Below are positions 3,695-57,038 of a DNA stretch of 64,000 nt, one piece after another (positions within the stretch are counted from its first letter, which is position 1; each line of letters begins with the position of its first letter). Source of the DNA: Octopus vulgaris (Eukaryota); assembly GCA_951406725.2 (NCBI GenBank), contig OX597833.1, forward strand, positions 33,170,001 through 33,234,000, in the 5' to 3' direction. The position numbers and the translations under genes are program-made. The notes under the pieces were generated by a model, which was not told the DNA's origin, searched no databases, and was given only the letters and a program-made list of their open reading frames with translations.

Positions 3695-6400
3695 AGATAG
3701 ATAACTTAGATTGGTTTCGGCCATTATCGGCCCAGGCCATGACTAACTCAATAGCACCACCTGGAAAAGTCTTTTAGTTAATTATTTCGGGACACCATGG
3801 ACCACTTGAGCAGAAAGTTGTTGTTGGTTGAGACGAATCCATGTGTAGGTGGTTTATCCGGTATTTCCCGAAGGAATATGTCCAGGTACAGTTTGAAAGT
3901 TGTTGGGTCTTTTTCTACTTTAATTTCTTTTGGAATTACATTGAAAAGTGCAGGACCATTTGCTGTGAAGAAATTTTGTCGCAATGTTCTTATGTGATGA
4001 GATCGCGACCTTTGTAGGGGACGCATTGCACGGGGGCCTAATCTTGGGTGAATTGTAAACATAATGCCAATATCATTTGGATAATATTGATGGAATATAT
4101 TTCCACATGGTGCAAATAATGTATCGCTCGCGGCGGCGTTGCAGAGAATAGAGCTTCAGCTGTTCAAGTCGAGCCCAATAATCAAGTCCCATCATGCCAT
4201 TTATTTTTCTTTGTGATTGATCTTTGTGGCGCTTCGATCCTACTAATGTCTTGTTTTTTGTAGGGGAACCACAATGGGCAGCAGTATTCGAGGTGAGACC
4301 TAGCGAATATGGAGAAGAGAAGGATAATGGTTTCATGATCTCTAGATTGGAAAGTTCTGAGGATCGATGAGCACATTCTGCGGGCAACATCGACTTTTTG
4401 TTGATGTGCACACTCCAACTAAAGTTGCTGTCGACAATTACACCTAAGTCTCTGATATTATCTGACGCTTCAAGTAGGTCTCCCGACGGCAGTGTATATG
4501 GTTATTTGAGTGTGCCCTCTCTTCCAAAGTGGATGAGCTCAAATATTTCTTCGTTCAACTGCATATTGTTTTGTTTTGTTTTTTTTGTGTGTGCCCACTG
4601 GGTTACTGCGCATAGGTCCGATTGAAGCATTGTTCGATCATATGCTCCCTTAAGGACTTTCTGGAGCTTAGATTCTTCTGCAAATATTTTTATGGTGCTA
4701 TGTTCAATGGAATCTGCAATGTCATTGATATAGTGGTGGAGGAACTGTGTTAGACAGTCCCTCCCACCACGAAAGCCATACTGGTTGCAATTTAGGAGAT
4801 GATTTTGTTCAAGGAAGGCTGTTATTCTTGATCTCAACACCTTCTCAAATACTTTGATGATATGTGATGTAAGTGAGACTGGGCGGTAGCTTACAGGGAG
4901 CGATTTATTCCCCTTTTTAAAGATAGGAAAGACTAACTGGGAGAGAAGGTGTGCAAGTTGCAAGAGGAGCTGCAAGTTGCTGTCTGCATCCTTCTAGCAC
5001 TCTAGCAGGGAATCTGTCGGACCTACTGCTGAATCAGGTTTGATTTCTTTATTGCTACTAGGATATCAGTGACATCGAAGGAAAGGACATGTCGAGGATT
5101 CACAGTAGCAAAGCTGCTTGTGTCAACTGAATCAGAGTCACTGAAGACAGAGCAGTATTTACTTTGCAGGATCTCAGCCACATATTTGGCATCACTGTGA
5201 AGGACGCCGTTTCCGTCAACCAGTGGGCCGATAGAAGAAACTGTATTCCTATATGTTTTTGCAAAGGAGTAAAAGACCTTAAGATTATTCTTGATGTTTT
5301 TAATAGCCCAGGCTTCCTCTGCAGCTCTTTAATCGTTTATAAGGGTTTTCATACAGTCCTGCAGTTGTTGCTTCCTTGATTCCAAAGTTGCTAATGTTCT
5401 CGATTGGGGGTGATGCTGATGGTGGTATTTTAGGGTATTGATTTTTCGGTTTATTCTTTTTATTCTACTGGTGAGAGATTTTCTGTTTTGGAACCCTGCA
5501 TCTACTTTTGTTTATGAGTTGTGAGGGTGTGTGTTTTGAACATATGTGGGTGACTGTGTCCTCAAATAGTTGCCATGCGTTTGTGTTTGTTGTGGTATTG
5601 GAGGAAGCAAGGGTGAAGGACCAGTCCACTTGCGATAAGTTTAAATGATCGCATTCCAGTTTGACTTATGTAACATTATGTTATCAAATGGGTGCACTGG
5701 AGTTATTGATTTATGCCAAATTTTTGGATGTTGAAGATTGAGGATACAGAGTACTATGTCATGATCGGAGAGAAGGGTTCTTTCCACTGTGATGTTATGA
5801 ATAGTGTTGGCATGGTTGCTTAGCACTAGGTCCAAGACACTTTGGTTATTTCTGGTTGGTTCATGGACAAGTTGTGACAGGAAAAATTATCCATAAATTA
5901 AAAAATTAACTCCCACTGCTGCTTTGTCTGAGCTTGAGGTGAAGGTTCTTGGTTTAACAATATTAGTGGACCAGTCTACAGAGGCTAGGTTGAAGTAACC
6001 CATCATCAGAATATTTTCTGGGTTACATTACAGGCACTCTTGGAAATAGTTTAAGGGTGCTTGTGCGAGTCTGTAGAGCCCAATCATAGACAGGTCTTTA
6101 CCTTTTTTGTGTACAGAGACTAATTTGCAGTAGCCGTTGTAGAAAATGTCCTTGGTATCTGCAAGGAGGAAAACAGCAACTCCATCCTTTCTTCGGCCTG
6201 CCCGATCAGCGCGAATGGCAGTGAAGTCTCTGATTTTCATTATAGCCTCTAAATGACAGTCGTTTAGGTGGATCTCAATTAGGACAAAGAAAGGAATTGG
6301 ATGTGAGTGTGCTGCAATCTATCCCTTAATGTAGGGTATTATCCACTTTTGAGCCTTGATGGCTGGGTTGAAACCTTGGGCATTAAGGAGGAAACCCACT
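3695..6400 (-). mobile_element. CR1/L2-group LINE, degraded ORF2 (endonuclease + RT)
   Basis: LLNAQG near 6375, LDLVLSN...LSDHDIV (5641-5835), PIFKKG...YRPVSLTSHIIKVFEK...QYGFR (4502-4975), ARSHLEYCCPLW, RLEQLKLYSLQRRRERY. Confidence 0.85.
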
Positions 6401-7432
6401 TTACGCGAAGTGGAAAAAACATTTACACGGAGAGAATAAACTAATTCACGTGCAAAATTAAATAACTCGACAAAAAGAAACAAAATTTTTGTTGGGTAAA
6501 CTTACGAAAATCGTAAAATATGGAAGACTTGTTAGCTGGGGTAGTTGAGTTGCAAAAACAGCAACAACAACAACTCGAGAACAACAACAAGGAGTGCAGC
6601 AGCAAATGTTACAACACGTAGAGTTGATAACCAAACCGGAGAATACATTTTCATCTAAACACGTAGCAAATTCTATAAGCGAATTCAAATATGACCCCGA
6701 AGAAGGAGTAACCTTTGAGGCTTACTTTCGAAGATTTGAACAAATTTTTGGAAAAGATTGTCAAGATTGGACGGACGAAATGAACACGCGTCTAGTTTTA
6801 AGAAAAGTAACGACAGCAGAGCATGATACTAGATGGAAATGTTTAAACATAGAAAAGAGCGACGATGAAGACTTCACTACTTACACAGGCAGAGTCAACA
6901 AAGAGTGTGAAATATTTAGGCTGGATATTATTACTCCAGATCTTTTCAAGTCTTGGAATTTTGCACAAAGATTGTCAGATAAATGGGATGCAGAAATCCG
7001 AACGAAAATTCTAGTAAAACGGGAAATGAACCAGGATTTGACATTACAGAAACTGTCGGAAGATATTTCTGATATTAAAATTAAGAAGAAATTCAACGGA
7101 AAGTGTGTTTTCACATAAGACCAGTGCAAGGAGTTGGAAGACAAATAAAGTGTAGCAGGAAAAACAGAGAAAATATTGGAATGTAGACCCATGTATGGCA
7201 TGTGGTGAGATGCAGCTGATAAAAGATTGCCCGAATAAAAAAGCAAAGTGTTTTTGCTGTAGGTTTACAGGGCATATAAAATCGCACTGCAAAACCAGAA
7301 TGATAGGAAAATGGAATAAACAACAAAAAAGGAATAGTTTGTCAGCAGGAAAAACTGTGACTACAACAAATAGAAAATTCGTGAATGTGAGAATTGAAAC
7401 CACTAGTGTCAGGATGCAATTAGACACAGATA
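6400..7432 (+). mobile_element. Ty3/Gypsy LTR-retrotransposon gag-protease fragment
   Basis: gag-like FKYDPEEGVTFEAYFRRFEQIF; zinc knuckles ending CFCCRFTGHIKSHC; aspartic protease start VRMQLDT cut off at about 7430. Confidence 0.8.
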
Positions 7433-8878
7433 TCTGGGAGCATTTCTATGAGAGGTCGTAATACCTGTGAGATGAAGTAGGACATTCTATAATTGCTGGA
7501 GATATTCGCTCCGCAAACTGGTGGGGTTGGGGAGGGGCGCATGACAGGGTTTATGTAGGGTTTATGGTCTTTGCGTAATCTGTATAGTGGTAGGAACATC
7601 ATTGATGGACGCTTGGAAATTCTGTACAGTCCGTTTCTTTGGTTGGAGTATGTTGCACCACATTCCCATGTGTGTATTGAGGAGTTTTTGCACTCATATG
7701 GTGTTAAACTTCTCCCATGCTACGGATGTGTTGTTGCATGGCCTGGACATAGTTCTGTGGACTGTCTATTGACAGTCTGCTAGACTTGTCCGTCGGGAGG
7801 CACACCAATTTCCTGTTCGTAATTCGCTGTTTCAGTTTTTGTAAGCTTTTTGGCAACAAATGAACTGAGTTGGTGGTCCCCTCCACATTGTTTTTAGTGG
7901 ATTTGTTGTACTGGTTTAAGATGTGTCGAAGTTTGTTTCTAGCTAAGGAGATTTTTGCTTCTGTTTCACTGTCAGTTTGGGATGAGATACATACCTTTCT
8001 GTTGAAGGGTAAATCTGTGGGGTAGATCCTCGTCATGTCATAAGATTTGTTAAGGTTACGGAAGACAGTGTAGAGTATTATTATCATTGTGGTTGTTATT
8101 ATTGGTGGTGGCAGTGCTTGTACTGTGCCCATTTTTGTTGTTGTTGCTATTGTTGTGGGTGGTGTTGTTGTTGGTGTTGACGTGGGTGGTGTTGTTGGAT
8201 ATGGTGTGGATGACATGGTTGGTATTATCGTCTGCGTGGAGGATGTTGTTGTCATTGTTGCTGTTGCTATTATCATCGTTATTATTGTTGTTTCGGTTTC
8301 GTATGTTTGTGTTGTTGTTGTTATAGGTGTTTGAGTGGGGAATGTTGTGGTTATCATTATTATTGTTATTGCCACTAATGCTGTTGTCATCAACATCGCT
8401 ATTGTTATTGTTGTTGTTTCGGTTTCGTATGTTCGTGTTGTTGTTGTATTGTCTTAACCTCCATCTTAATTTTAAGAACATTGTTTTTCAATTTCAGATA
8501 GACAATCCATTTTTTGACCTTTTTATACGTAGCAAATTTCGGTGCTAACTCTAAAGCATGCATTTCATCTGTATCTAGCTGTACTGCACCGTATATTCCA
8601 AAAGTGTAATTGTTGTTGTTGTTGTTGGCGGTGGAAGTATTGTTTTCCGGTTTCCTGGCGCCGAAGTCGCCTGGTAGTTTACATTCCGACATACACAATC
8701 CCGTCCATATTGTTTGAGTATTTGTATTGATTCTTACCATGCTGGGATCGTTGTTGTTGCTGTTTCATCCACTTGAGTTTGTTGTTGAAGTGTTTGTTAC
8801 AGACATGGATTACTCGGTGGTATTCTTGTTGGATGTTTGTCACCGGTAAAGTTGCCAATCATTTACTTATTTGTTTTT

Positions 8879-8915
8879 CTAAAATTTTCGTTGCGTCTTG
8901 CAACCTTTTCAATAG
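8879..8915 (-). ncRNA. Minimal type-I hammerhead-like motif, U3-A8 core
   Basis: Minus strand: CTA TTGAAAA G GTTGC-AAGAC-GCAAC GAAA AT T T TAG; helix I only 3 bp. Confidence 0.5.
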
Positions 8916-9488
8916 TTGTCGACTCTGTCCGTTATCCGAGTTGCGTTCTTTTTGTTTGTTAGTGCGCATGTGTGTGGGTCAGTGTGTGTGCACATACACA
9001 TGTATTTATGTATGCATGAATGTAAGTGTGTGTACCTCTGTCTCCTTGTGTGCGCATATCTGAGTGTGTCTGTGTATGTGGGTGGGGGGCTTGTAACTAT
9101 GTTCTGTGTCTATGTATGGATGTGTATCTCTGTATGTGTGGATGCATGTCGCCATATGTGTCCTTGTGTGAAGTGAAGTGTGTGTGTGTGTGTGTATTGT
9201 CATGCACACACAAGGAGACAGAGGTATACATATACACACATGCAAACACACACACACAAATACACAAGCACATGAATATGCAGAATGCCTACATACTAAT
9301 GTACACTCATACATACATAAATACACACGTACACACACATACATACAGGCATACATGCACACATACATGCATGCATGCATACATACACACACACACACAT
9401 ACATATGTATGTGCACACACACTGACCCACGCACATGCGCACAAACAAACAAAAAGAACGCAGCTCGGATAATGGACAGAGTCAATAA

Positions 9489-9525
9489 CTATTGAAAAGG
9501 TTGCGAGACGCAACGAAAATTTTAG
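9489..9525 (+). ncRNA. Minimal type-I hammerhead-like motif, U3-A8 core (inverted copy)
   Basis: CTA TTGAAAA G GTTGC-GAGAC-GCAAC GAAA AT T T TAG. Confidence 0.5.
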
Positions 9526-9627
9526 AAAAATAAATAAGTAAATGAATGGAAACTTTACCGGTGAGTGTGTTAAATTACAATGCACTAAAAGAGAATGACT
9601 ATTCCCTGACGAAATATGTGTGTGTGT

Positions 9628-10495: not shown

Positions 10496-10693
10496 ATTTC
10501 AAATTTTGGTACAAGGTCAGCAATTTCGGGGAGGAGTAAGTCGATTACATAGACCCTAGTGATCTACTGGTACTTATTTTGTCGACCCCTAAACGATAAA
10601 ATGTAAAGTCGACTACGGCGTAATTAGAACTCAGAACGTTAAGAGGTCGAAATGTCGCTAATCATTTTTCCTGGCATGCCAGCTGGCTGCCTT
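10496..10693 (-). mobile_element. Degenerate tRNA-derived SINE (Nin-domain-like family)
   Basis: Diverged reverse-complement match to the SINE units at 28399-29165. Confidence 0.6.
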
Positions 10694-10848: not shown

Positions 10849-10896
<48 letters not shown>

Positions 10897-10899
10897 CAT

Positions 10900-11000
<101 letters not shown>

Positions 11001-11201
11001 TATACATAGCTATATATATATATATATAACATAAGGGGGATCAGCCATCTGAATGTGGCTAGGGTCAGGGCGGGGTGGTGGGGGTGTTACTGATGCATTT
11101 AGCCCCAGGCGAACATCAACGTCACCAGAAGAGCTGACACCATCTCGGTGTCCTTGCCAGCCTGCAAAGGGAGATCAGCCTCCCCGAAGATACGGATACT
11201 A

Positions 11202-11244
11202 CACACGGACCGATTTCGAGGTTATTGCCTCTTGTCAACGTATG
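11202..11244 (-). ncRNA. Minimal type-I hammerhead ribozyme, U3-A8 core
   Basis: CATACG TTGACAA GAGG-CAATAA-CCTC GAAA TCGG TC CGTGTG. Confidence 0.75.
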
Positions 11245-11440
11245 GTAAGCACCGCTCTTCGTTGAGGGACTCTCTCTACAGGCTGGATATATAGATTTTC
11301 ACAGTAACCACAGTCACTGGCGTAGAAAATCCGTTCGAAAACAATAATAAATCTCTGAGCGAGATATAAACAGTAACTGCTCTACAACATAAGGGGGATC
11401 AGCCATCTGAATGTGGCTAGGGTCAGGGCGGGGTGGTTAC

Positions 11441-11483
11441 CATACGTTGACAAGAGGCAATAACCTCGAAACCGGTCCGTGTG
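11441..11483 (+). ncRNA. Minimal type-I hammerhead ribozyme, U3-A8 core, GUC site
   Basis: CATACG TTGACAA GAGG-CAATAA-CCTC GAAA CCGG TC CGTGTG; 6-bp helix I, 4-bp helix II, palindromic ACCGGT helix III. Confidence 0.8.
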
Positions 11484-11697
11484 TAGTATCCGTATCTTCG
11501 GGGAGGCTGATCTCCCTTTGCAGGCTGGCAAGGACACCGAGATGGTGTCAGCTCTTCTGGTGACGTTGATGTTCGCCTGGGGCTAAATGCATCAGTAACA
11601 CCCCCACCACCCCGCCCTGACCCTAGCCACATTCAGATGGCTGATCCCCCTTATGTTGTAGAGCAGTTACTGTTTATATCTCGCTCAGAGATTTATT

Positions 11698-11783
<86 letters not shown>

Positions 11784-11828
11784 AGAGAACAAGATGTACG
11801 TTACGCCACAATAATATATGTATAAAAA

Positions 11829-12053
11829 ATATATATAAAAATACAAAATGGGACAAGAAAGCAAAACACTCAAAGAGACGACACAAAAATCGGACGGGTC
11901 ATTCGAAGCCGCTAATCTTCAGTCAAGAGCCGAAATTGCGAGGATGATCCGGTTCTTGACTGAAGATAAGAGGCTTCGAATGACCCGTCCGTTTTTTGTG
12001 TCGTTTCTTTGAGTGTTTTGCGTTCTTGTCCCATTTTGTATTTTTATATATAT
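11829..12053. repeat. Fold-back element, about 104-bp arms with a 17-nt spacer, between (TA)n tracts
   Basis: 11829-11932 is an imperfect reverse complement of 11950-12053. Confidence 0.85.
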
Positions 12054-12059
12054 CATTTT

Positions 12060-12115
<56 letters not shown>

Positions 12116-12380: not shown

Positions 12381-12724
12381 CTACTTCGAGTGGACAAAAG
12401 GAAAAAGAACAGGAGAAATAGAATGTTGATTTGATGAGATAGTACATCTTTTGTGTATTTTTGCAAGTAGAAAATGAAGACACTGTCATTAGAAATCTAT
12501 CTACTTAACTTCAGATGTCAGACTTCCTACATTAGCCTTTGCCTATAACGCTACTTCGAGTGGACAAAAGGAAAAAGAACAGGAGAAATAGAATGTTGAT
12601 TTGATGAGATAGTACATCTTTTGTGTATTTTTGCAAGTAGAAAATGAAGACACTGTCATTAGAAAGCTATCTACTTAACTTCAGATGTCAGACTTCCTAC
12701 ATTAGCCTTTGCCTATAACGCTAC
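12381..12724. repeat. Tandem duplication of a 170-bp unit
   Basis: CTACTTCGAGTGGAC...GCCTATAACG occurs twice back to back, nearly identical. Confidence 0.9.
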
Positions 12725-22654: not shown

Positions 22655-22921
22655 GATAAGACAGTAAGGTGTGATTTGAGGGAGATTTGGCTGCTATTTC
22701 TACCATGTCTAGCTGCCATGTAGGGGTCTCCCTCATAGGCTCATACATACATATATACATAGATAAGACAGTAAGGTGTGATTTGGGGGAAATTTGGCTG
22801 CTATTTCTACCAGGTCTAGCTACCATGTAGAGGTCCCCCTCATTGGCTCATATATATATACATACATAAGACAGTAAGGTGTGATTTGAGGGAGATTTGG
22901 CTGCTGTTTCTACCAGGTCTG
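22655..22921 (+). repeat. Three imperfect tandem copies of a roughly 105-bp unit
   Basis: ACAGTAAGGTGTGATTTG...TTGGCTGCT.TTTCTACCA at about 22661, 22768 and 22871. Confidence 0.85.
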
Positions 22922-22989
22922 TTAGGCCTTCTCATGTAAACTCAAGCTTTCTCATGCCTTGAACATAAGACCAAAGCAGAGAATGTATT

Positions 22990-23279: not shown

Positions 23280-23538
23280 TTGCAGCGTGGAAGGTGTTTG
23301 TAAGCCATTTAAGAAACACACAAAAACCGTTACATTCACTTCAACATTTAAATTTAATTTGCCAAAATATTTTCGTCGCTTTGAGACCGCCACCTGTTCA
23401 CTGACAAAAATATCGTGCTAACAGGTCGCGGTCTCAAAGCGACGAAAATATTTTGTCAAATTAAATTTAAATGTTGAAGTGAATCTAACGGTTTTTGTGT
23501 GTTTCTTAAATGGCTTATAAACACCTTCAACGCTGCAA
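23280..23538. repeat. Fold-back element, 119-bp arms with a 21-nt spacer, next to (TA)n
   Basis: 23280-23398 is the reverse complement of 23420-23538 with few mismatches. Confidence 0.9.
23358..23408 (-). ncRNA. Minimal type-I hammerhead-like motif, G3-C8 core
   Basis: TTTGTCA GTGAACA G GTGGC-GGTCTCAAA-GCGAC GAAA ATAT T T TGGCAAA; the opposite arm has perfectly pairing GTCGC/GCGAC; palindromic AATATT. Confidence 0.6.
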
Positions 23539-28398: not shown

Positions 28399-29165
28399 AA
28401 GGCAGCGAGCTGGCAGAAACGTTAGCACGCCGGGCGAAATGCTTAGCGCTATTTCTTCTGCGGTTGCGTTCTGAGTTCAAATTCCGCCGAGGTCGACTTT
28501 GCCTTTCATCCTTTCGGGGTCGATAAATTAAGTACCAGTTACGCACTGAAGTCGATATAATCGACTTAATCCGTTTGTCTGTCCTTGTTTGTCCTCTCTG
28601 CGTTTAGCCCCTTGTGGGTAGTAAAGAAATAGGTATTTCGTCTGCCGCTACGCTCTGAGTTCAAATTCCGCCGAGGTCGACTCTGCCTTTCATCCTTTCG
28701 GGGTCGATTAAATAAGTACCAGTTACGCACTGGGGTCGATACAATCGACTTAATCTGTTTGTCTGTCCTTGTTTGTCCTCTCTGTGTTTAGCCCCTTGTG
28801 GGTAGTAAAGAAATAGGTATTTCGCCTGTCTACTTTCTGATTTCAAATTCCGCCGAGGTCGACTTTGCCTTTCATCCTTTTGGGGGTCGATAAATTAAGT
28901 ACCAATTACGTACAGGGGTCGATATAATCGACTGGACCCTCCCTATAAATTTCGGGCCTTGTGCCTAGAGTAGAAAAGAATATGAAAGTGTGTTGCAAAA
29001 TGCTTAGTAGCATTTCGACCGTCTGCACGTTCTGAGTTCAAATTCCATCGTGATCAGCTATGCCTTTCATTCGTTCGGGACCAATAAAATAAGTACCAGT
29101 TGAACACTGGAGTCGATGTAATCGACTTAGCCCCTCCCCTGAAGTTGCTGGGCTTGAAACCAATA
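28399..29165 (+). mobile_element. tRNA-derived SINE with a tandemly repeated core of about 190 bp (Nin-domain-like)
   Basis: Head GGCAGCGAGCTGGCAGAA, B-box GAGTTCAAATTCC, repeated GGTCGACTTTGCCTTTCATCCTTTCGGGGTCGAT...GTACCAG. Confidence 0.85.
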
Positions 29166-29305
29166 TTAAAGTGTGTTACTTTGTATTTGTTTCATGAACT
29201 CAGTAATGAAAAAATGTTAATTTTTAAATACAAATAATGCAGATCTGAGGAATTATGTACATTATTTACATTTGACGGATATTTGTCCTCATCTTGTTTG
29301 TTGTT

Positions 29306-29351
29306 AACACAATGTTTCGGCTGATATACCCTCCAGCCTTCATCAGGTGTC
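29306..29351 (-). ncRNA. Minimal type-I hammerhead motif, C3-G8 core
   Basis: GACAC CTGATGA A GGCTG-GAGGGTATAT-CAGCC GAAA CAT T GTGTT. Confidence 0.65.
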
Positions 29352-29446
29352 TTGGGGAAATTTCGAACCTGGGTTCTCATTCCTGAGGTATTTTTCGATG
29401 TTGTTGTTGTTGTTGTTGTTATTATTATTATTATTATTATTATTCA

Positions 29447-29518: not shown

Positions 29519-30179
29519 GTGGGTAATTGTGGAATGAATTTTAGGGCTTATAAATCTAATATTCTTCTATCCTTTCTTAATACCAGTTCCCATATGCTAC
29601 TCATATCTGCACTCGATCTGCTTAGGAATTTGTTGTGTCCTAACATATGTGCTACTTCTTTTAGTTTTCGTATTTTCCAGTGGTGTTCTCTGTCTATTAT
29701 TTTAACTTCATCCCACAGGGGGAGGTGGTCTCCATTTTTCCATATATGATCAGCTATATTCGATTTATCAATATCTCCTGGTGTCACAGCTTTGCGATGT
29801 TCGTCTATCCTTATTTTGAGGAGGCGACATGTTTCGCTTTTGTATAACCTACCACAGCTGCATGGGATGGAATACACACAGTCTTTGGTCATATTCTCTT
29901 CTATCGGTGGTTTTATTCGAAGGAGATATTTGCGAAGTGTTGTATTACTCTTGAATACTGTCCTGATGTTATATGACCGCATATCTTTTGTATCTTTCGG
30001 AGAGGCCTTTCACATAGGGTAAACAGACTGTGGACAGTTTATTGGCCTCATCCGCTCTCTTCTTCATAATTGAAGTGGATAGTATCCTTTTGGGGTAGTT
30101 GTTGCATAACAGATCGTTATGAACTTGATCATTTCTTCGTGGTGGGTATCACGATCGCTACTTATATTCTTTGCAGTCT

Positions 30180-35181: not shown

Positions 35182-38100
35182 TTGCTGCAGAGTACATGGG
35201 AGGTGTCTTCAAACGCTCATGTAAGTTCAGTTTAAAACATTTGTTTACACCATTTTGGTGCTGTTGTTTCGTTTTACATTTTATTCCAAGTTGTTTATGG
35301 AAACACCAGAAATCTGTCGCTGGTTTTTCCGAGTTTGTTTGGCCCCTCGTAGGGCCATATTCAGCCCTCCAAATAAGTTCAGTGGGTTTAATCACATACA
35401 ATTCAACAAGATGGCGGAGCGCATCTTGAAAGAGTTAAGGAAAAAATCTTCCCCTCCCGCAACGCTAGTGACTGCTGAAGATTTCCCTCCTCTTCCCTCT
35501 GTTACTGGCAACAATGCTGTTGAGGGAATGCTGGAGAGAAAAAAGTGAGGGTGTAAAAGTATTAAGTCCACTCCGTGCTAACAGCAGTGGCAAAATCGAC
35601 AACAGCAGTGGTAGCAGTAACAGCGGCGGCGGCAGCAGTGATAGTAGCGGTGGCGGAGGTGACGGCGGCGGCAGCAGTTGTAGTAGTGGTAACAACAACA
35701 ATGCGAAAAACAACAACAGCAACAGCAGCAGCAGTGATCGCAGAGACAGTAGTAGCAGAGATTGCGGTTTTGTTAATAACACAACGGATTTTAGCAGAGA
35801 AAATAATGCTAACATTGACGGCAGAGAAGTGGAAAATAGGAATGACTGGGAGTGGCAACAGTAGAAGTAGCTACAACTCCACTATCACTATCAACAGCAA
35901 CAGCAACATCAGCTGTTACAACAACAACCACAACAAGAGCAACGTCGACGACGACAAAAACAATAACAGGTTTGCTGAGGTAGCAAACACAAAGAGAGAA
36001 ATGTTTCCCATCCTACTCGATGACAAAGCTCGTGAACTCTTGAAAGCGAAAGATATCATTGAATTGGAGTGGGGTAAGGTTACAGTGCTCCTGCCTCCCG
36101 AAATAATAGAGGCAAAAGAGAATATGACAGTATGTTTCAGATGCGTTTCACGATAATGTCGAAGAGATGAAATAGCCTCCATCAGTCATGTTGAGAAGGT
36201 CCTCAGAGAAATGTTAATACATGTAGCCCATATACAGGGAGGGAGGCAGTTTGCCAACATTGAAGTCATCTTTAAAAGTAAGGACCTCGCGCGAAGTCAC
36301 GCAGTATCATTCCGGTGGACTGAGGAGTAGTTCCTGTATTCCACCCACCTCTCAAAGAGAACGATCAGAATTAGCGTGCCACCGGGCGTAAATATCTGTC
36401 GTCTGCGGTTCAGGACCCAGAGTCACTTCTGGGGGTAAAAACGAGCAGCAAGGAGAACTGGTGTGAGATCAACTTGGAAATATTAATCCATGTGAAACCA
36501 GAAAACATCTAGAAGTTCCCGGACCTGATCCAGTTGCTGAATGGGGTGGAACTGCGTGTCGTCGTGGAAGGCAGGAAGCCCAGATACGACATCTGTATGG
36601 CCACAAGCCGTCTGAGAGCTTTCTGTCCAAAAATGTTGGGAGGTATACGACCACACTTGCAGCCTACATCGCACCCCCAACAACAGCAACAGCAACAACA
36701 GAGACCTTTTAATAAAACGGTAGCCTCATCTCTAACAACAATATCAGAGGCAATAGAATGGGTAAAACCACCCTGAGTATCTGTCAAACCAGCCCCCTCA
36801 CCCTTTCTCCCTAGCATACACTCACACCAACACTCTCACACTACCACAGACACACTCACACTCCCCGACATAGATCCTATGGTCCTTCCTCATCCCGTAG
36901 TGGATATGAGCAAAAAACGTAAAAGACAAAGGAAAAAGTAGACGAAATTACATCAACACCTGAAAACAGAAACCCCCAGTACATCGAACATGGACACGGC
37001 ACAAACAACACCAGTACCACATCTTCACAACTATCACAACCCCAACCAAATCCATCAATGCACTCACAACCACATGTAGCCCAAAAAAGAAAGCTCACAG
37101 TCACCAATACGAAAACACCGAATTGTGCTCGTGAGGAGAACCAACAAAAATGTGTTGGCTCTCATAGCCAGAAACAAGGAAATTGAGAGAGAGAGTGCAA
37201 TTTACAACACCAGCACCCTTAGGGTTTCGGATCGCTTAATACCAATTCGGCTACCCCTCAAAGCATACAAAGAAATTCAGAGGGATTTCCCGCATCATGT
37301 GGGAAGGCCAAACGTCCGCACCACGAAGCGGCTTTTAGCCGGTTTCCCCGAACTAGATCTGGAGTTCGCTCTTTCTTTCTTTTCCTCAACACTTTCGAGC
37401 CGTCGTGGTGATTGTCAGAGTGGGATGCATAAATGTTCGCGGCCTGCAAAACAAGGTCGCTTGCTCAATGACCTGAGGTCGCTAGGTTTGGATGTGATAG
37501 CAGCCAGTGAGACCAGGATTTCCAACACACGCGATCTTGCACCCAGTTTCGACGATTATGAGATCTACACATCTCTTAGTGGGTCAGGAGTGAGAGGCGA
37601 GGTGGCAGTGTTGTTTAAGAAAGGCCTGGATCTCGAAGTTCGGACGATCTTCCTGGACCCAGAGAATAAGTTGGTGGTCTTGGGCGTGAGCGACAGTGAA
37701 GGTGGTGCCTTTAGACTAGTCACTGTTTACGCCCCCACGGAGGCGGGGCAATCAGATAGCTTCAGACGTTTGGAGGTTTTCCTTGGGATGCCATGCCTTT
37801 TAATCTTAGTGAGTGACTGGAACGATAGCTTGGATGCACGCCTGGATAGGGTGGGGCTTGTTGATAGGAGAGTGGGGAGTAAAAGCCTCACAAACCTGGT
37901 CAGCTGCTTCTATTTGGCTGATAAGTACCGACTGGACTTCCTGAATGCCCAGAGTGGACATGGGCGAGCCGCATCGGGTCTTTCAGACCGTATCCAGATA
38001 GAACATTTTGTATTCCTGTAGACAGAAGTAATATATTGTCCACGTTTCAAAGTCGTCGGCTACACGGACCACAAGTTTGTGATCTGTATGGTCGACATAG

Positions 38101-40940
38101 GTCTATAGACAGGGCCCCGGATATGGAAGCTAAAGGCATCCTTACGGGCGCGCCAAACTTTCAGGTTAGTAAGTTAGTCCATCGAAAGTTGGCGTATACG
38201 ATCGTCAACAGCCATTGTTTGATAGCCCTGAAAAGGGCTATTATAGTAGAGGCGGTAGGTTTTAGTATGGAAATAGCATTAGAGGAATCTAGGATAGAGA
38301 GAGACCTAGTTAGGAAGCTGGAAGTAGCGCTTAGGAAAGACATGCTAGCGGTGAGATTGGCTCTTAGTCAATTCTTCAATGCCAAGCACGAAGGTTGCGT
38401 TCACTGAGAGGCGCGTGCACTGAGAGGGGAGTGGACGAAAGTTATTCGATTGGTCCGGGTGGCAGAGGCGCTTCGTGGAGACAAAGCAACAATTCGGTTT
38501 TTGGCGAGCTGTGATGGGCGCATGATAACTGAGTCCAAGCAGATGAATGCAAAATTTCAGCAGTACTTCGCCAAACTGTATGAGGGCGCGGTGGTTCTGG
38601 GACGGTGGTGGATTTCACCTCATATCTCAGTGGCATGCCGCACCTCTCGGTCAGGGATGCGGAGTTCTGCGAAATGCTGATAGCAGCCAAAGATATAAGA
38701 GAATCCATAAAGGCCTGCGCAAGAGAAGTCTCCGGGGCGGGATGGTCTGCTCTTCGAGCTTTATTTTCATATGCCAGACTTGTTTGGTGGTCTGCTGGCA
38801 GACGTCTGCCACTGGCAGCAGAACGGGAGAATTTCCAGTGTTGTGAGACGTGGATTGGTGGTGGTGAGGAAGTAGGAAGAAGCCTAACTAGGGGGACAGA
38901 ATTGAAAACTTAAGGCCTATAACTCTGTTGAATGCAGATTATAAGATGTTTGCCTAGGTATTAGCCAATAGGTTGGCACTTGTCGTCGACAAGTTGGTTG
39001 GTGACGTGCTGATATGCACTATCTGAGAACATCAACCTCCACTTTACGTGCTGCATGATAGAGAGAGTTGGTAAGGAGCCTGGCATGGGTGGGGCCCTGA
39101 TCAATTTGTATCAGTCGAAAGTTTTTGATAAGGTCTATCACCAATACTTAGAGGCTTCACTCGCAGCAGTGAGTTTCGGTCCCGTTTTCAGAGTCTGGAT
39201 CGGTGCAATGTACAGCGGCATCTGTTCGGTGGCCAAAGTAAATGGCCGCCTTTCGGAATCGTTTAGCATCGCTCGTTCGGTCCGTCAAGGATGCCCACTG
39301 TCGCCTCTTCTGCACGTACTGGCTCTCGAGCCATTGCTGCGGAAACTGAATATTTCGAGGGACATCTCGCGTGATCTAGGATGCAGAAGGTTCGTGTCGG
39401 CTTACGCAGACGTCACTGAAATAGTGTCGGACGTTTCGGAAATAGAGGTGGTCGGCACTGCTCTAAGGGAGTACGAAGCGGTTACAGGAGCAAAGATCAC
39501 CTAGGAGAAGTCGGTGGGCCTGCAGCTCGACACCTGGAGAGACAGGTCCATGCCAACCGACAGCGTTGTAGAGCGCTGGGCAGGAGGACCGGTTAAATTG
39601 CTCGGGGTCCGATTTGGTCCGGATCTCCAAGTGGACAAGAACTGGGGTAGGTAACGAGCAGGGTAGCCAATGTCACCCAGAAATGAGCAGAGAGGAAGCT
39701 GTCCCTGAAGGGTGGAGTGGAGGTGGCGACGCGTACATCGCTTCCGTCATCTACTTCTACCTGACTGTCGTCCCTTGATAAAGTTGGTGCGCTTGCACTA
39801 CCACTTCCTATGGAAGGGACGTGTTCCGCTCGTCAGACGACCCATCTGCTGTCAACAGCCGTTGAGTGGAAGACTGGGCATGCATGCCGTGGCTAGTGAT
39901 GCGCAGAAATGAGCTGAAGCTGAAACGTCTCCAACTTTTCCTTAACGGTGAACAGGTGTGGTCGCCGTTCGTCAAAAGGGACTTACCGCAACTCGTCTCA
40001 TTGATGGAGCTACACTCCTTGTTCAAGCGCAGACCAAGAAAGGGCGCTAAGCACCTGGAGTATCGGCAAGCGCTCACGGCCTTCTTCCAATCGAGCTACG
40101 CGGTTGGTGGAAGTTCCACTATGGAATTCTATAGAGGATTAGTGGGGGAAAAGAGTGACGACGTACGCGGGGAAACACTGGGTGTCAAGCGGGATCAACT
40201 AACTAGTCTTTTTCGGAGAACTTTTAGGCCAGGGCCTATGGATAACTTCCAGAAATACCAGACACAGAAGTGTTGTCAGACAGACCTGTCCGAGGTGTGC
40301 ACAAGGCAATGAAACCGTCCTGCATGCACTCGTCCAGGGTATGTGCATTATTGACCTGTGGAGCTTTGTCGAACAGCTGTTATCATGCGTAGAACGGATG
40401 CGGTTATCAGTCGAGTCAGTTGTAAGGATCACCCCGCCGTCTTCTGTTGGTCGGGAAGGAAAGGCAATATTCCTCTGCTTGGTGGCTGTAGTGAAAGAGA
40501 TAGTATGGTGGACGAGGTTGAAAGTACTGAAGACAGACACTTTCTTCCTCGGCTGAGCCCTCATCGACTTTTTGAAAAGGAAAATGGGGGTAGAAGGAAA
40601 AGTACTGCCTGCCCGCCACCCAGTAAGTTTGTTGAAAGGTAGGGGAATGTTGCGAAAGTGGCTCGTGTGAGTGGGCCTACTCTGTATATTCGTCTGTAAT
40701 CCGGAGCAGTTGAGTGTAAGAGAGGTGCCCTAGGCAGTCGGGGTGGCCAGAGTGTGTGGAGTTTCCTGGTTAGCCCTGAGTGGACTCACTCCTATTGGAG
40801 AATTTCGTTACTTAAAGTTTTGTTTTTTGTTTTTTTGTTTTTTTGCTTATATTTCTGTTTTAAACCCCACTTGTCCCTTGTTTTGTATGGTCCTGAATTA
40901 ATTGTTTTTGTGTTCGGCCCTTGTGGTCAATAAAGAAAGA
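35180..40940 (+). mobile_element. Near full-length degraded Tx1/L1-clade LINE, same family as 1-3690
   Basis: ORF1 from about 35410 (MAERILKELRKK); endonuclease (DVIAASETR, VTVYAP); RT (KEPGMGGALINLYQSKVFDKV, VRQGCPLSPLL, SAYAD); C-terminal Cys/His region near 40285-40340; T-rich 3' UTR with AATAAA at 40929; (ATT)n on both sides. Confidence 0.9.
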
Positions 40941-40979: not shown

Positions 40980-41380
40980 AAGGCGGCGAGCTGGCAGAAA
41001 TGTTAGCACGCCGGGCAAAATGCTTAGCGGTATTTCGTCTGCCGTTATGTTCTGAGTTCAAATTCCGCCGAGGTCGACTTTGCCTTTCATCCTTTCGGGG
41101 TCGATTAAATAAGTACCAGTTACGCACTGGGGTCGATATAATCGACTTAATCCGTTTGTCCGTTCTTGTTTGTCCTCTCTGCGTTTAACTCCTTGTGGGT
41201 AGTAAAGAAATAGGCATTTCGTCTGTCTTTACGTTCTGAGTTCAAATTCAACCGAGGTCGACTTTGCCTTTCATCCTTTCGGGGTCGATAATTTAATAAC
41301 CAATGAAACACTGGAGTCGATGTAATCGGCTTAGCCCTTCCCCAAAAGTTTCAGGCTTTGTGCCTTTAGTAGAATGGATT
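40980..41380 (+). mobile_element. tRNA-derived SINE with two core units (28399 family)
   Basis: AAGGCGGCGAGCTGGCAGAAATGTTAGCACG head and repeated core. Confidence 0.85.
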
Positions 41381-42146
41381 ACTGTTATTAGTATACATCA
41401 GTCGACGCACGTTCACATCGCTCTGTAAGTTTTGCTGTTATTCATATTGTTATGCACTGTTATACATTGTACGTTTGTTATCGTTACTGAGTAAAACTGA
41501 CCGGGACCTTGGGAAGCTGGCTGGTTCTTCTCCATTTGTAACCCTTAGAGGGTATTTTATGCTTGTTTGGGCAAAGACGCCCCTCATCTGTTTTTTTTCT
41601 TCTTTTTTTGCTAAAAAACAAAGATGGTGACAGCATTTTGAATAACAGCACACGTGAGGCCTATTAAAGCAATTTTTCACTTGCTTCTACCTTCCCCTTC
41701 ACCATCGCAGAAATAAAAGAAAATTACCAAAAGTGACAACACAAGCGAGAACATTGCCACCGCCACAGCCACCGCCGATTTCAGCAGAACGTCCACCACC
41801 AACAACATTAACGAAAAAGACAACAAGGAAAACGAGGCATGCAAATCCTGTCGAAGAAGTTTCGATTTTGTGAAAGCGATCAGAGACGTGAGTAAGACAT
41901 TTTCATTGAGTAAAATGGAGAAATGTGGCAGAAATGTAGTACTAAACGTTCCTAGAACTGTCCAGCAAGATATTGATTCGCGGACAGTTTTATATAAAAC
42001 AATCGGACCCAAAAGTAGAGAAATGGATCAGGCAATATAGCAGCAAATAGAGTAATGCTTAAAACAAGAGTTCTATATTTAAGAGATGGGGAATTATGTA
42101 CATTATTTACATTTCACGGATATTTGTGCTCATCTTGTTTGTTGTT

Positions 42147-42192
42147 AACACAATGTTTCGGCTGATATACCCTCCAGCCTTCATCAGGTGTC
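42147..42192 (-). ncRNA. Minimal type-I hammerhead motif
   Basis: GACAC CTGATGA A GGCTG-GAGGGTATAT-CAGCC GAAA CAT T GTGTT. Confidence 0.65.
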
Positions 42193-42239
42193 TTGGGGAA
42201 ATTTCGAACCTGGGTTCTCATTCCTGAGGTATTTTTCGA

Positions 42240-42308
<69 letters not shown>

Positions 42309-42310
<2 letters not shown>

Positions 42311-42381
42311 TCACTGCCTGGAATCGAACTCGGAATCTTGGGGTTAGTAGCCCGCGCTCTTAACCACTACGCCATATGCCC
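42309..42381 (-). other. tRNA-derived Pol III head
   Basis: A-box TGGCGTAGTGG, anticodon-like arm GGG-CTACTAA-CCC, B-box GAGTTCGATTCC. Confidence 0.75.
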
Positions 42382-42493
42382 GTTTAGTACTACATTTCTG
42401 CCGCATTTCTCCAACATACATTTCGGGCTCTTGAAGTCATTCTCATCTATGAAATACCTTAGGAATAAGAACCCAAGTTCGACATTTCCCCAA

Positions 42494-42539
42494 GACACCT
42501 GATGAAGGCTGGAGAGTATATCAGCCGAAACGTTGTATT
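42494..42539 (+). ncRNA. Minimal type-I hammerhead motif (inverted arm)
   Basis: GACAC CTGATGA A GGCTG-GAGAGTATAT-CAGCC GAAA CGT T GTATT; palindromic AACGTT. Confidence 0.65.
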
Positions 42540-42829
42540 AACAACAAACAAGATGAGGATAAATATCCGCCAAATGTAAATAATGTAAATAAGGTGCTTA
42601 AAACTAGTTTGGAAAAACAAAATCTATGTAGTGAGAGGGAAGAAATGTGGGACTGTCGGGGTGAGATTCACCTCAGAGGAGGAGATCAAAAATTACACGA
42701 CAGCTACCTTGTTTGGGGAGTATTCGGAATTAGAATGCTCAGCATCCCACCAGTGATAAACATCTGCTAGTTAATGATTGCAATCCCCCTCGACATAGAT
42801 GAGAAAGATCTATCTGCTGCTATTTTCCA

Positions 42830-43769: not shown

Positions 43770-44520
43770 AAATGGATAGGGTATTTCTAAGGATGTGGGC
43801 AGTACTTGTCGATACATTCTTTTGGATTTCTCTGAGGCATGGTGCTCCTGAGATCATATCTAGATGTTTCTGACATCCTTTTTATCATGCCTACGGCACC
43901 TAGAATAACAAGAACAGTTCTCGTTTTAAGATTCCACATCCTTTGTATTTCAATTTCCAGGTCCTTATATTTACTTAGTTTGTCAAATTCCTTTACAGAT
44001 ATATTTTTATCAGTGGAAACACATCTATTAGTCTACAAGTATTTTGTTCCCTGTCTTTAATAATTATGTCTGGTCGATTAGCCTGGATCGTTTTGTCAGT
44101 GTTGACTGGAAAATCCCAGAGGATAGTGACATTTTTACCTTCGGATAAGGTTCATACCAGTATGCAGGAGTGTTGATTTTGTAGTGTTTACATATTTTCC
44201 AGTGTAAATATTGTCCTACCCTATCGTGGCGATTTTTGTATTCCTTTCGTATCAGCACAGGACATCCCGAGACAAAATGGTCTATTTTTTTGTCAAATGT
44301 GTCGCAGAATCTGCATTTAGCGTCAGAACCGTTTTGAAGAAAGTTAATCTGCTTTTTTTTTTTTTTTGTGAACAAGCTTTGATCTTGTGCCGTCAATATG
44401 AAACCTTCACTCTCTGCTTTCAGTCCTGAACTTCTCAGCCACTGATGGGTTGTTGCTTAATCTACATCAGCATTTCAACTTCCAAGTATATACTGTCCAT
44501 GCAGAGGCTTCTGGCTCTAC
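43770..44520 (-). mobile_element. Third R4/Dong-like 3' fragment
   Basis: LKAESEGF..AQDQSL, CRFC..IDHFVSGC..YKNRHDRVGQYLHW, KLSKYKDLEIEIQRMW; adjoins (ATT/GTT)n. Confidence 0.8.
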
Positions 44521-48760: not shown

Positions 48761-50158
48761 CGTATGAAAGATTAGAAAAAATTCCCTTAACTGCAAGTGC
48801 AGTTTTACTATGGAATGTAGGAGTAAATGTATACTGGCCTAAACGGTTAAAGGATGTAAGGCGTCTGCTGAATGAAGCCTAGTTGTTGGATTCAAATATC
48901 TAGCCTTAGAATCGCTGTGCTATTTCGGAAAAGCATAAATTCGAAAGTAGGGACATTATTTTGGGTGCATAAAAACATTATAGGGAGAGAAGTTTGAAAA
49001 CATTCGTGGTGAGATTCCTTTGATTTGTACGTATGAAGCCGTCAAGAAGAATTAGATAAGAGGACAAAATATAAGAAAGTTTCCCTTTTGATACTAACCC
49101 GCCTTAGACCTCTCTTAGTTCTATGACACAGCCCTCTTGTTTTCAAAGCGATTGACAGAATGGATTCCGCTAAAGTTACCCAAGGACTAGGTGGTAATGT
49201 TAAACTGGGTGACATATTAAGTCTCTCCATCCAAGAACTCGTAACTCAAAATACTGCAACGAATACCATAAGACATATCGTCTAACAGTCTAGTAATTCT
49301 GCCAATCCACTGCCTCTGCTAGCATTCTGTTTTATGGACTCTAAAAGGATAAAAAAGCGGAGTTATCCTCGGCATGATTTGAACGCAGATCTCAGAGAAC
49401 CAGAAAAAATATTATATAGTTTTCTATTCAACGCTCTAACAACCTTAACACTTTTTGAGATGACAAATGTAAAACGATGTCACGCTGCAAAATACCATCC
49501 GAGGAACCCTTTTCGCCTTGAATAATAAAGGTTTTACCACATTCACTATGAAAAGCAGTTGATAGGCAAAAACCTTAGAACACCGGGCAAAATTCTTGTA
49601 TTTATTTACAACTCTTTAAGTTATGGGTTCAAATACCGCCGATTTACAATTCATTTACTCTACTTTTCATTCGTTCAAAATCCATAAGAGTATTGTAGTT
49701 GATTTAATTAACGGCTGTGAATATTGTGCTTTAAGATCAGATCAGGAGTAAAATCCAACTGCAACAGTATTCTTGTGAAAAGCAAGAGGAGCGCTATGTT
49801 GTGTTAACTTTAAAATGGTGGTGGGGGTTGGGTGGTGATGATGCTGATGAGGATGTTGGTGGTAACGACGACGATGCTTACTCGTTGTACATCTTAATAT
49901 TGATGCCTATATAATATTTCTGAAAGCCTCTAGATTAAGGTAATGATGGTTTCCTATTCGAAACCTAAAGAAAAAGATAACAACATGTAAGTGAAATTGA
50001 GAGCAATTATTCTGTTTAGTTTCCTATTAAAATGTTTACTTCTTGTTATGTATGTTAAACTTATTAAGAATGGCATTATTTGCCTCCCAATACAATATAT
50101 CTAGAATTTCTCCGTTTACTTATATTTTGATTATTCTTTTTTTTTTATCAGATTCTCC

Positions 50159-50995
50159 ATGGACGGAAATTATTCTTTGATACGTAGTTTCACACTTAAT
50201 AACATTTCTGATATGATAGCTATCTTTGACCAGCTGCAACCAAAAGAAAGAGAACTTTTACGACGACTCAGTAAAAACAATGACCTATCAGATTTCCTCA
50301 GAGAGACAAGGACTTTATATTTCTTCCCGGAATACCGCCTTCACAAGATTTTATTGCTTTATGTATCTCCGTTATTACTCGTTCTCGGAACATTTGGTAA
50401 TATCTTCTCTGTCTTTGTAATGAGACAAAGATCGATAATAAGAATGACAGCTTACGTGTATCTAATCAACCTAGCTATTGCTGATTCAGTTGTACTCTAT
50501 ATTGGCTTGCTTAGACTTTGGATAAGCGAACTAACTGGAATGGATATACGAAATCAAACGTCCTGGCTTTGCAAGCTTGTTGTTTTCTGTGGTTACGTCT
50601 CCAGTGATTTCTCCGTCTGGTTAATTATTGCTGTAACCATTGAACGTTATATTGTTGTCTGTCACCCTCGCAAAGTAAACAACTTTTGCACTGTACAGAG
50701 AGCGAAATGGGTTGTCTGTGGCTTGTTGCTCTTGTTCGTTGCAATCAACATTCACTTCTTTTGGACTATCTCACTAAACGAAAGAAATGTCGACAATAAA
50801 ATCAGCTATTACTGTAGTAGTCGAAAAGATTTTGATTACTTAGTGACGGTGTTGTGGCCGTGGGTCGATGCGTTCCTTTACTGTTTTGTCCCGTTTGGCA
50901 CCATCTTGTCGCTTAACACATTGATCATCCGTCGGATTGTGACTCTCAGCCGTGGAACAATAAAGATGCAAATTGCACAAAGTAATTTGTTACAA
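50159..50995 (+). CDS. Rhodopsin-class GPCR, FMRFamide/peptide-receptor-like; coding exon 1 (TM1-TM5)
   Basis: Acceptor TTTTTATCAG just upstream; TM1 LGTFGN, TM2 NLAIAD, TM3 WLCK..VTIERYIVVCHP, TM5 FVPF..LN; donor CAA|GTAAGT at 50995/50996, phase 0. Confidence 0.92.
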
Positions 50996-51149
50996 GTAAG
51001 TACAATCCAAATAAATTTATCGCTATGCATTATGTTTTATAATCATGTTCGAGTTAACATATTTTTATATTTACAAAATGTAGGGAACATTATGTAGGAA
51101 ACATTAAAAAAACCTACTAGAGATAATCATGGGTTAAGGAATAAAGAAT

Positions 51150-51733
51150 ATTCTTTTCTACTCTAGGTACAAGGCCCGAAATTTTGGGGAAGGGGATCAG
51201 TCGATTAAATCAACCCCAGTACGCAACTGATGCTTAATTTATCGACCCCGAAAGGATGAAAGGCAAAGTGGACCTCGGCGGAATTTGAACTCAGAACGTA
51301 AAGACAGACGAAATACCTATTTCTTTACTACCCACAAGGGGCTAAACACAGAGAGAACAAACAAGGACAGACAAACAGACTAAGTCGATTACATCGACCC
51401 CAGTGCATAACTGGTACTTATTTAATCGGCCCCGAAAGGATGAAAGGCAAAGTCGACCTCGGCGGAATTTGAACTCAGAGCGTAGCGGCAGACAAAATAC
51501 CTATTTCTTTATTACCCACAAGGGGCTAAACACAGAGGGGACAAACAAGGACAGACATAGGTATTAAGTCAATAACATCGACCCCGGTGCGTAACTGGTA
51601 CTTAATTTATCGACCCCGAAAGGATGAAAGGCAAAGTCGACCTCGGCGGAATTTGAACTCACAACATAACGCAGACAAAATACCGCTAAGCATTTCGCCC
51701 GGCGTGCTAACGTTTCTGCCAACTCGCAGCCTT
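51150..51733 (-). mobile_element. SINE with three tandem core units, in the GPCR intron
   Basis: Reverse complement of the 28399 family. Confidence 0.85.
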
Positions 51734-56449: not shown

Positions 56450-56839
56450 GTCCGGCGTTGTCATACCGACAGTAACCGGAAACTAACTCTAATGCTGCTT
56501 ACTCTCTCCTTCATGTTACTGTTGACAACACTTCCGCTGGCAGTCAGCTTAATTCTAGCTCATTTCTGGAACTTCAGCATGTCACGAGATTTGGCTTGGG
56601 CGGCGAAATACCAGCTGACCAAGACGATAGCTGAATTAATGATGTATCTCAACCATTCCATGAATTTTATATTGTATTGCACAATGGGACGTAAATTTCG
56701 TCAACAAGTTGTGCGGATGTTCTGTAATAAAAACAACATGACAAAAGGTTTATCAGATCATACACATCACATATACTGCTCCAGAAACTGTTCTCCACAG
56801 ATAAACACTTCACAGCAATGTCCCGACACAGAAATATAA
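56450..56839 (+). CDS. GPCR coding exon 2 (ICL3 end, TM6, TM7, C-tail)
   Basis: Acceptor TTTCTGTTTTAG at 56449, in frame: VRRCHTDSNRKLTLMLLTLSFMLLLTTLP...NHSMNFILYCTMGRKFR; spliced product 408 aa. Confidence 0.92.
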   Translation, partial: VRRCHTDSNRKLTLMLLTLSFMLLLTTLPLAVSLILAHFWNFSMSRDLAWAAKYQLTKTIAELMMYLNHSMNFILYCTMGRKFRQQVVRMFCNKNNMTKGLSDHTHHIYCSRNCSPQINTSQQCPDTEI

Positions 56840-57038
56840 TGCCCGACAGAGAGTTAGTTGTGAATCTCTTCAAACTCTTCTGATACATTGTGTATGCATA
56901 TTTCTGTATGCGTATATAAGCCATCACATATCCAAGAAATCAAAAGTTATCTACTGATATATATATATATATACATATATATATATTTATATATATATAT
57001 ATATATATAAATTTATATACATATATATATAAATATAG

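Follow-up and report, generated by a model that had tools for sequence, protein, structure and literature searches.

The locus at positions 11028 to 11702 of the 64,000-nt stretch of Octopus vulgaris DNA analysed here (the window) very probably holds an ORF-less element that depends on Penelope-like elements (PLEs). A fuller account, in which a multi-copy ORF-less element was inserted in the PLE manner from an uncleaved linear template, with every step of the mechanism as laid out below, is in our judgement somewhat better supported than not. The element is likely non-autonomous, of the non-LTR retrozyme type, and copied in trans by a Penelope-like reverse transcriptase (RT)/GIY-YIG protein. 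The features of the locus are as follows, with u denoting the complete unit.

10849 to 11027, no strand: (TA)n-rich target tract of the left flank, with a TA tract reaching 11028 (repeat scan)
11028 to 11385, sense (ribozyme) strand minus: complete unit u, 358 nt, GC 49.4%, ORF-less (self-comparison)
11158 to 11286, minus: predicted long rod extending helix I, with the hammerhead at its tip (folding prediction)
11202 to 11244, minus: type I hammerhead of the left arm, U3-A8, with the minority-allele helix III AUCGGU; cleavage predicted after 11208 (descriptor scan)
11341 to 11385, minus: 45-nt 'tail' segment, sense 1-45, inside the left unit and running into the body without an ORF (read contigs and alignment)
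11386 to 11437, minus: partial tandem, a 52-nt 5'-truncated upstream copy (100% identity to u1-52)
11432 to 11437, no strand: head-to-head junction, with 5-of-6 microhomology between the arms (arm alignment)
11438 to 11702, plus: inverted 5'-truncated arm, sense 133/139-358 and then 1-45 (self-comparison)
11441 to 11483, plus: type I hammerhead of the right arm, with the family-majority helix III ACCGGU, a perfect palindrome; cleavage predicted after 11477
11658 to 11702, plus: tail, at the right end only, at most 1 nt from a family boundary in read contigs; putative RT start 2
11702 to 11781, no strand: (TA)40 target tract of the right flank (repeat scan)

The original prediction described a 358-bp unit that runs into a second copy, followed by an inverted segment that reads across the unit-end/unit-start junction, and both points were borne out: the partial tandem continues directly from the unit, and the inverted arm is the reverse complement of u314-358 followed by u1-226 (or u231 with the junction overlap, from 11432). 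The copies are almost identical, as claimed, with 2 differences in 271 nt (approximately 99% identity) when the junction overlap is included. One difference, at 11436, lies inside that overlap, and the other, 11472 versus 11213, lies in stem III of the hammerhead. The description of the element as recent holds for this insertion, whose arms carry a single mismatch outside the junction, but not for the family, most of whose contigs are 90-99% alike. The forward unit carries the ribozyme on its minus strand, so that the arms lie head-to-head; on the ribozyme strand they point apart, with 3' ends that both meet (TA)n, the first where the unit stops and the second 45 nt beyond. The unit 3' end at 11028, which meets the TA tract without a tail, is the putative RT start 1. 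The join between the arms is asymmetric, linking u52 to u226-231.

The predicted (TA)n on both sides was confirmed (10849-11028 and 11702-11781), and the element sits among a cluster of TA/CA microsatellites, where any target-site duplication would be masked by the TA repeats. Self-comparison revealed no LTR layout at the locus, and nhmmer no further copy of the unit within the 64-kb window. Lack of coding capacity was likewise upheld: ATG ORFs of the closed unit reach no more than 30 aa on the ribozyme strand and 70 aa on the other, and no protein matches were obtained, including for the sense frames of 64 and 48 aa, for which a search at E<=10 among longer proteins is a weak test. Two frames of the unit considered as PLE N- or C-termini were rejected, as they had no protein matches. 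ORF analysis and protein searches identified no RT plus GIY-YIG ORF between the repeats at the locus, and the unit is thus not classed as an autonomous PLE. There is no tRNA within the window, and therefore no tRNA-SINE head. A scan for bacterial promoters, irrelevant here, found nothing.

Each hammerhead is composed of UUGACAA (U3-A8), a 4-bp helix II with a 6-nt loop, GAAA, a 6-nt palindromic helix III, GUC and a 6-bp helix I. The descriptor, run over both strands of the whole window, returned these two hammerheads and one weak unrelated match, and it matched none of 20,000 shuffled units. Neither over 3 kb at E<=1 nor over 671 nt at E<=10 did Rfam searches return a hammerhead; their matches were low-complexity, miRNA-like and below gathering. 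We rejected an alternative hammerhead on the plus strand, around 11092-11128, because it does not satisfy the descriptor. Judged as a sequence motif, the hammerhead is well formed, and the type I, U3-A8, GUC assignment of the original prediction stands at that level, with all eight of the listed family variants within it (see below) compatible with the fold.

In folding predictions for the unit, helices I and II form at probabilities of 0.78-1.0, and for the circular fold the ribozyme strand scores z = -3.75 and the opposite, less stable strand z = -1.84 (100 shuffles each). For the right-arm, majority allele, the catalytic dimer is the minimum-energy co-fold, at -26.5 kcal/mol, whereas with the left-arm allele the dimer falls short of the minimum by 3.3 kcal/mol. 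By this prediction the ribozyme would act as a dimer, and might process multimeric transcripts of the family into monomers or circles. A good motif is no guarantee of activity, given that just one of nine predicted retrozyme dimers of Xenopus is reported to have cleaved in vitro (bioRxiv 10.64898/2026.07.22.740005). When read-through RNA of the complete locus is folded in silico, the two arms pair with one another, which brings the probability of helices I and II down to 0. With only one hammerhead per strand, the locus itself would not release a circle; it is likely a dead end, its one hammerhead per strand being buried in the 229-bp hairpin of any read-through RNA.

Public sequencing runs were used to examine the family. 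Among 24 listed runs, 20 contain the stretch or part of it, 7 of them with at least half the words; they cover 10 studies and 4 organisms, and none of the runs is recorded as RNA. Thirteen of the 20 contain it at a share below 0.5, and of those only X10 and X12, which are RNA by guess only, were used in contig alignment. Contigs aligned to the unit in four of four runs (1785, 1630, 150 and 31 contigs). In run X1, 308 contigs are at least 99% identical to the unit, 570 are at 95-99%, 716 at 90-95% and 191 below 90%. The joint between unit end and unit start (11384 to 11028) was present in three of the four runs (6, 3 and 1 contigs in X1, X3 and X12). The point where tail meets body, 11340/11341, is bridged without an ORF, with at least 31 letters on each side, in 2 of 32 listed pieces, from a set with 3594 others: one from X3 with 7 differences and a depth of 3321, depth figures being sums over contigs and not copy numbers, and one from X12 with 12 differences. 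Since these diverged pieces carry the tail into the body without an ORF, the 358-nt period is not a one-off of this locus. Among the listed pieces, none covers a whole unit.

Loose ends accumulate before 11342 in four of four runs (75, 79, 9 and 5 contigs; agreement 0.51-0.64), and summed contig depth steps 8- to 29-fold at this position, 1 nt from the right-arm end. The last letters of the loose-end consensus are common to three runs, and in X12 the consensus resembles the unit's own continuation. These ends are mixed, many of them belonging to diverged sister families rather than to insertion ends, so that the position of the tail end is a putative one. By the same summed measure, read-contig depth over the tail and over the 3' 95 nt of the unit exceeds that of the unit body 10- to 50-fold. 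The tail and the unit 3' part (11340-11380, 11040-11123) recur in at least two sister repeat families of far greater abundance, which diverge just beyond; one abundant sister family may be the autonomous partner. The 4 joints listed include no change of strand, and hence none that matches the locus. Pattern scans gave 0 loci for the unit 3' part in metagenome, viral and genome contigs, for the tail in metagenome and genome contigs, and for the hammerhead in viral contigs.

Sequence variation in the family falls in a manner that spares the ribozyme. We analysed the 40 substitutions listed out of 56, which are unphased and come from other individuals or species; 8 of them fall in the 43-nt motif, and all 8 keep the hammerhead fold under a compatibility rule set in this analysis (type-matched permutation of the listed substitutions, P=0.0013). 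Three are in loop II, two preserve helix I, one restores the helix III palindrome, and the remaining two, U3->C and A8->G, are the canonical core letters. The palindrome-restoring letter accounts for 14426 of 14478 summed depth in X1. Over the whole unit, 9 of the 40 listed substitutions break the predicted fold, versus 15.2 expected (P=0.014). A single contig in run X10 (depth 5.9) skips 34 nt, 11202-11235, corresponding to most of the hammerhead, and represents a ribozyme-deleted copy of the family. A>G and T>C changes were equally common in DNA runs and in guessed-RNA runs, and we therefore claim no editing signal.

The arrangement of the locus is that described for PLE insertions, namely a partial tandem, an inverted 5'-truncated copy, a 30-40-bp tail at one end and a bias for TA (PMC8557442), and the same pattern is described in PMC3846280. 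Here we found the partial tandem with its inverted copy, a microsatellite, AT-rich target, and a right-end extension of 45 nt, slightly above the described 30-40 nt, whose coincident contig boundary has mixed loose ends. The protein of one PLE is reported to cut and extend both strands of AT-rich DNA (PMC11167929). The same report describes two internal RT starts that delimit the tail, with uncleaved RNA as the main substrate and ribozyme cleavage dispensable. What had been read as circular permutation is better seen as standard PLE anatomy, with partial tandem, inverted copy, a 45-nt 'tail' at one end, TA target and microhomology at the join; the inversion is the usual head-to-head arrangement, of which the window holds other examples, and does not call for a special strand switch. 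The proposal of insertion by a Penelope RT is itself supported, on the basis of this anatomy.

Setting out from the observed anatomy, motif, family variation and ORF-less continuity, we infer the enzyme (a PLE protein), the RT starts, the form of the template and the role of cleavage as follows. A source copy consisting of a partial copy, a full unit and a tail would be transcribed, and the (TA)n tract nicked on both strands by the PLE protein. Two cDNAs would then begin 45 nt apart, the left one (410 nt) at the unit end and the right one (265-271 nt) at the tail end, both reading through an intact GUC site. Their 3' ends would anneal through the 5-of-6 microhomology, and fill-in would yield the head-to-head structure. 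Self-priming on an antisense template has been proposed for such head-to-head junctions (PMC3846280); the asymmetric join seen here would fit two opposite-strand cDNAs better. From these starts, a cleaved monomer allows just 180 and 225 nt, versus the 410 and 265-271 nt observed, and both arms cross the intact ribozyme cut site, indicating that the template was uncleaved. The cutting step of the ribozyme is unnecessary for building the locus. The claim of a circular or multimeric template thus stands insofar as the RNA was uncleaved and longer than one unit, but a circle is allowed rather than required, as a linear 455-nt RNA suffices.

We consider it rather unlikely that the same element and the same PLE enzyme worked from a circular 358-nt template, which hammerheads would cut from multimers and the host would ligate, and which the RT would go round more than once, as in the original prediction and the model of Cervera and de la Pena. 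The left arm spans 1.15 units and both arms cross the cut site, as a circle would provide, but the 455-nt linear RNA, with one ribozyme, holds both arms equally well, and the cDNAs end after 0.75 and 1.15 units. Moreover, the junction crossed by the inverted arm is the pLTR/tail boundary that PLE insertions normally include, which makes the argument for a circle weak. The unit does match in size the mussel retrozymes of 350-390 bp, which give abundant circles (PMC7229834), its circular fold is stabler on the ribozyme strand (z of -3.75 versus -1.84) with helices I and II still formed, and family variation preserves the ribozyme; on the other hand, no locus with two tandem hammerheads was seen among the data examined, uncleaved RNA was used for PLE insertion in vitro, and the Anolis reads reportedly never ended at the cut site (PMC11167929). 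We therefore favour the linear template over the circle, to a modest degree. In the original prediction, copies with fixed ends that always adjoin an RT ORF would have pointed to an ordinary pLTR. The ends do look fixed and not random, which weakens the argument for a circle, but the unit is ORF-less in many copies, which argues against an ordinary pLTR. Overall, the circular-permutation argument is weaker than was held, and the case for an ORF-less family with a ribozyme is stronger.

It is improbable, in our estimate, that the arms are pLTR stumps of an autonomous PLE which template jumps or an internal deletion have brought together, here alone, as a 358-nt period. The anatomy is that of ordinary truncated PLE ends, and the greater depth of the tail and 3' 95 nt (10- to 50-fold over the body), shared with the sister families, would suit such an origin. 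Retrozymes are also reported to be homologous to pLTRs (bioRxiv 10.64898/2026.07.22.740005), so that the boundary between the two is soft. Diverged contigs, however, bridge the tail-to-body point without an ORF, the hammerhead is canonical and not minimal, unlike the other PLE hammerheads in the window, and no reading frame has protein relatives. Far less probable still is an assembly chimera or a DNA-level rearrangement, by slippage or fold-back in the TA tract, in place of a retrotransposition product. Palindromes flanked by long TA tracts do assemble poorly, and the locus junction was not among the 4 joints listed from the 4 runs aligned, but a fold-back read would mirror from one point, whereas the join here is asymmetric (u52 to u226-231) and has microhomology. 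In addition, the arms differ at one stem III base, at which the right arm has the family-majority letter, the right end coincides with a family boundary, and more head-to-head PLE-like ends are found elsewhere in the window. We thus retain PLE-type insertion of the ORF-less element from an uncleaved linear RNA as the preferred reading.

Coding relics of PLEs occur in the window, with protein-atlas scores of 0.97 and 0.91, the second below the recognition threshold, which suggests that such enzymes were once active in this genome. Pfam left the 5 PLE-like ORF relics among the 13 window proteins unrecognised, and those beyond the two scored by the atlas are ones that we take to be PLE-derived on the strength of familiar motifs. 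The higher-scoring relic, at 62400-63840, consists of a decayed PLE-type RT, a Cys-rich linker and an endonuclease-like end (0.97 to RT/HTH_animal clusters). Other head-to-head PLE-like ends lie at 8840-9564, 11814-12069, 42094-42592 and 59655-60027; none resembles the unit. An autonomous partner was not found, the unit matching none of the other PLE-like ends in the window.

The adjoining head-to-head inverted element at 11814-12069 sits in the same TA cluster; its arms are approximately 89-93% alike, each with a degenerate hammerhead-like CUGAAGA..GAAU motif, and it is likely an older PLE end pair. The inverted arms of 8840-9564 carry a U3-A8 hammerhead-like motif, UUGAAAA (-8912, +9492), are unrelated in sequence to the 358-nt unit and lie upstream of an N/T-rich PLE-like ORF relic (7704-8453, minus). 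A PLE-like end of 141 nt occurs three times (29253-29393, 42094-42234 and 42452-42592), its hammerhead being of the minimal build (CUGAUGA, extra A, GAAA); the last two form an inverted pair, and the first is downstream of a GIY-YIG-like relic at 29548-30009. At 59027-60027, a PLE-like ORF start (minus) is preceded by a 375-nt palindrome beside a TA tract.

The window also contains two exons of a rhodopsin-family peptide GPCR (50105-51097 and 56450-56839), with exon identity of 98% over 85% of the exon's length to an Octopus bimaculoides protein named as thyrotropin-releasing hormone receptor and of 83% to an Argonauta protein, which marks the window as octopus DNA. A SINE-like repeat family is present at 28450-28933, 51199-51684, 40980-41374 and 10497-10679, in places as 184-bp tandem units (2.6 copies). 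Further repeats are a 170-bp near-perfect duplication (12381-12724), a 107-bp tandem (22656-22955), a 261-nt palindrome (23280-23538) and a 381-nt inverted pair in the GPCR-adjacent TA region (56958-57967), and other retroelement relics (RT and AP-endonuclease fragments and a DUF7083 gag-like piece) lie at 1-1800, 4073-4993, 37080-40312, 44064-44456 and 6549-7118.

PMC7229834, PMC7761336 and bioRxiv 10.64898/2026.07.22.740005 treat it as an open question which autonomous element moves the non-LTR retrozymes of animals, and whether they move from circles; they argue for PLEs from common ribozymes, co-occurrence and pLTR homology. The octopus locus adds another type of evidence, namely the anatomy of a PLE-type insertion in a unit that lacks an ORF and has a canonical hammerhead; the class itself was already known, and the inverted arrangement is ordinary for PLEs. 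Only tentatively would we entertain that this is a genuine circRNA-producing retrozyme, the first in cephalopods, with copies that bear every mark of a PLE insertion (RT starts fixed at two sites 45 nt apart, priming on both strands in (TA)n and a head-to-head join). If so, we would have in its insertion junctions direct physical evidence for the mobilisation of canonical-hammerhead retrozymes by Penelope machinery, the 3' end and tail common to the sister families would be a cis element that names the partner RT, and the family would hold a living switch between C3-G8 and U3-A8 cores.

The non-LTR retrozyme class is described in PMC7229834 and bioRxiv 10.64898/2026.07.22.740005. Like metazoan members (Cervera and de la Pena 2020, PMC7229834, with Mytilus units of 350-390 bp; Li, Clavereau and Pollet 2026), the octopus family has a non-coding unit of a few hundred nt with GC below 50% and a head-to-tail period, a type I hammerhead of canonical size whose palindromic helix III is free in the predicted fold, a mollusc host, and PLEs in the same genome. 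Indeed, at 358 nt and 49.4% GC, the non-coding unit falls within the size and composition of retrozymes (150-450 bp, GC <50%), and we found both a canonical type I hammerhead and a multi-copy head-to-tail family. It differs in having a U3-A8 core within a canonical-size motif, and in that the locus comprises just 1.15 units plus an inverted arm, with one hammerhead per strand, and so would not rank as 'active' under the criterion of two hammerheads set by Li et al. The main text of PMC7229834 makes no mention of inverted arms or tails ('inverted', 0 matches). No cephalopod retrozyme was found in literature searches or in the words of PMC7229834, PMC5680766 and PMC7761336, although Repbase, Dfam, Lunse et al. 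2017 or the supplements of PMC7229834 and of bioRxiv 10.64898/2026.07.22.740005 may list one; the suggestion of an undescribed cephalopod element thus holds for the host, for which no example was found in print, but not for the class, which was already described.

With endonuclease-bearing PLEs, as presented in Arkhipova et al. 2013 (PMC3846280), Craig et al. 2021 (PMC8557442) and Frangieh et al. 2024 (PMC11167929), the locus shares the partial tandem, the head-to-head 5'-truncated inverted copy, a putative tail at one end only, the TA/AT-rich target, a hammerhead in the repeat and microhomology at the 5' join. The octopus unit differs from them in lacking an RT/GIY-YIG ORF, in its 45-nt tail and in its hammerhead, which is canonical and not minimal, the two builds being defined in PMC4209133. 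The U3-A8 core was already known from the Cercyon PLE hammerheads of Schistosoma mansoni (Cervera and de la Pena 2014, PMC4209133), which share with the octopus unit the U3-A8 covariation of the catalytic core and for which opposite-strand pairs 100-700 bp apart had already been noted; the Cercyon hammerheads, however, are minimal, with a long helix II and an extra base after A9, whereas the octopus one has helices of 6, 4 and 2 bp and no extra base. Chlamys MRC1 and similar elements (PMC8557442) offer a parallel as ORF-less PLE derivatives with pLTRs, head-to-tail insertions and 3' ends common to related families, although they are described from green algae, in a PLE clade without canonical hammerheads. 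A non-autonomous PLE derivative would be expected to have its 3' end and tail in common with an autonomous PLE of the same genome; those of the octopus unit are shared by the abundant sister families and matched by no PLE end in the window. Placed by its sequence, the octopus unit can be classed as a new member of the known non-LTR retrozyme/non-autonomous PLE class, one that would behave like a non-autonomous PLE and is a retrozyme by its sequence features.
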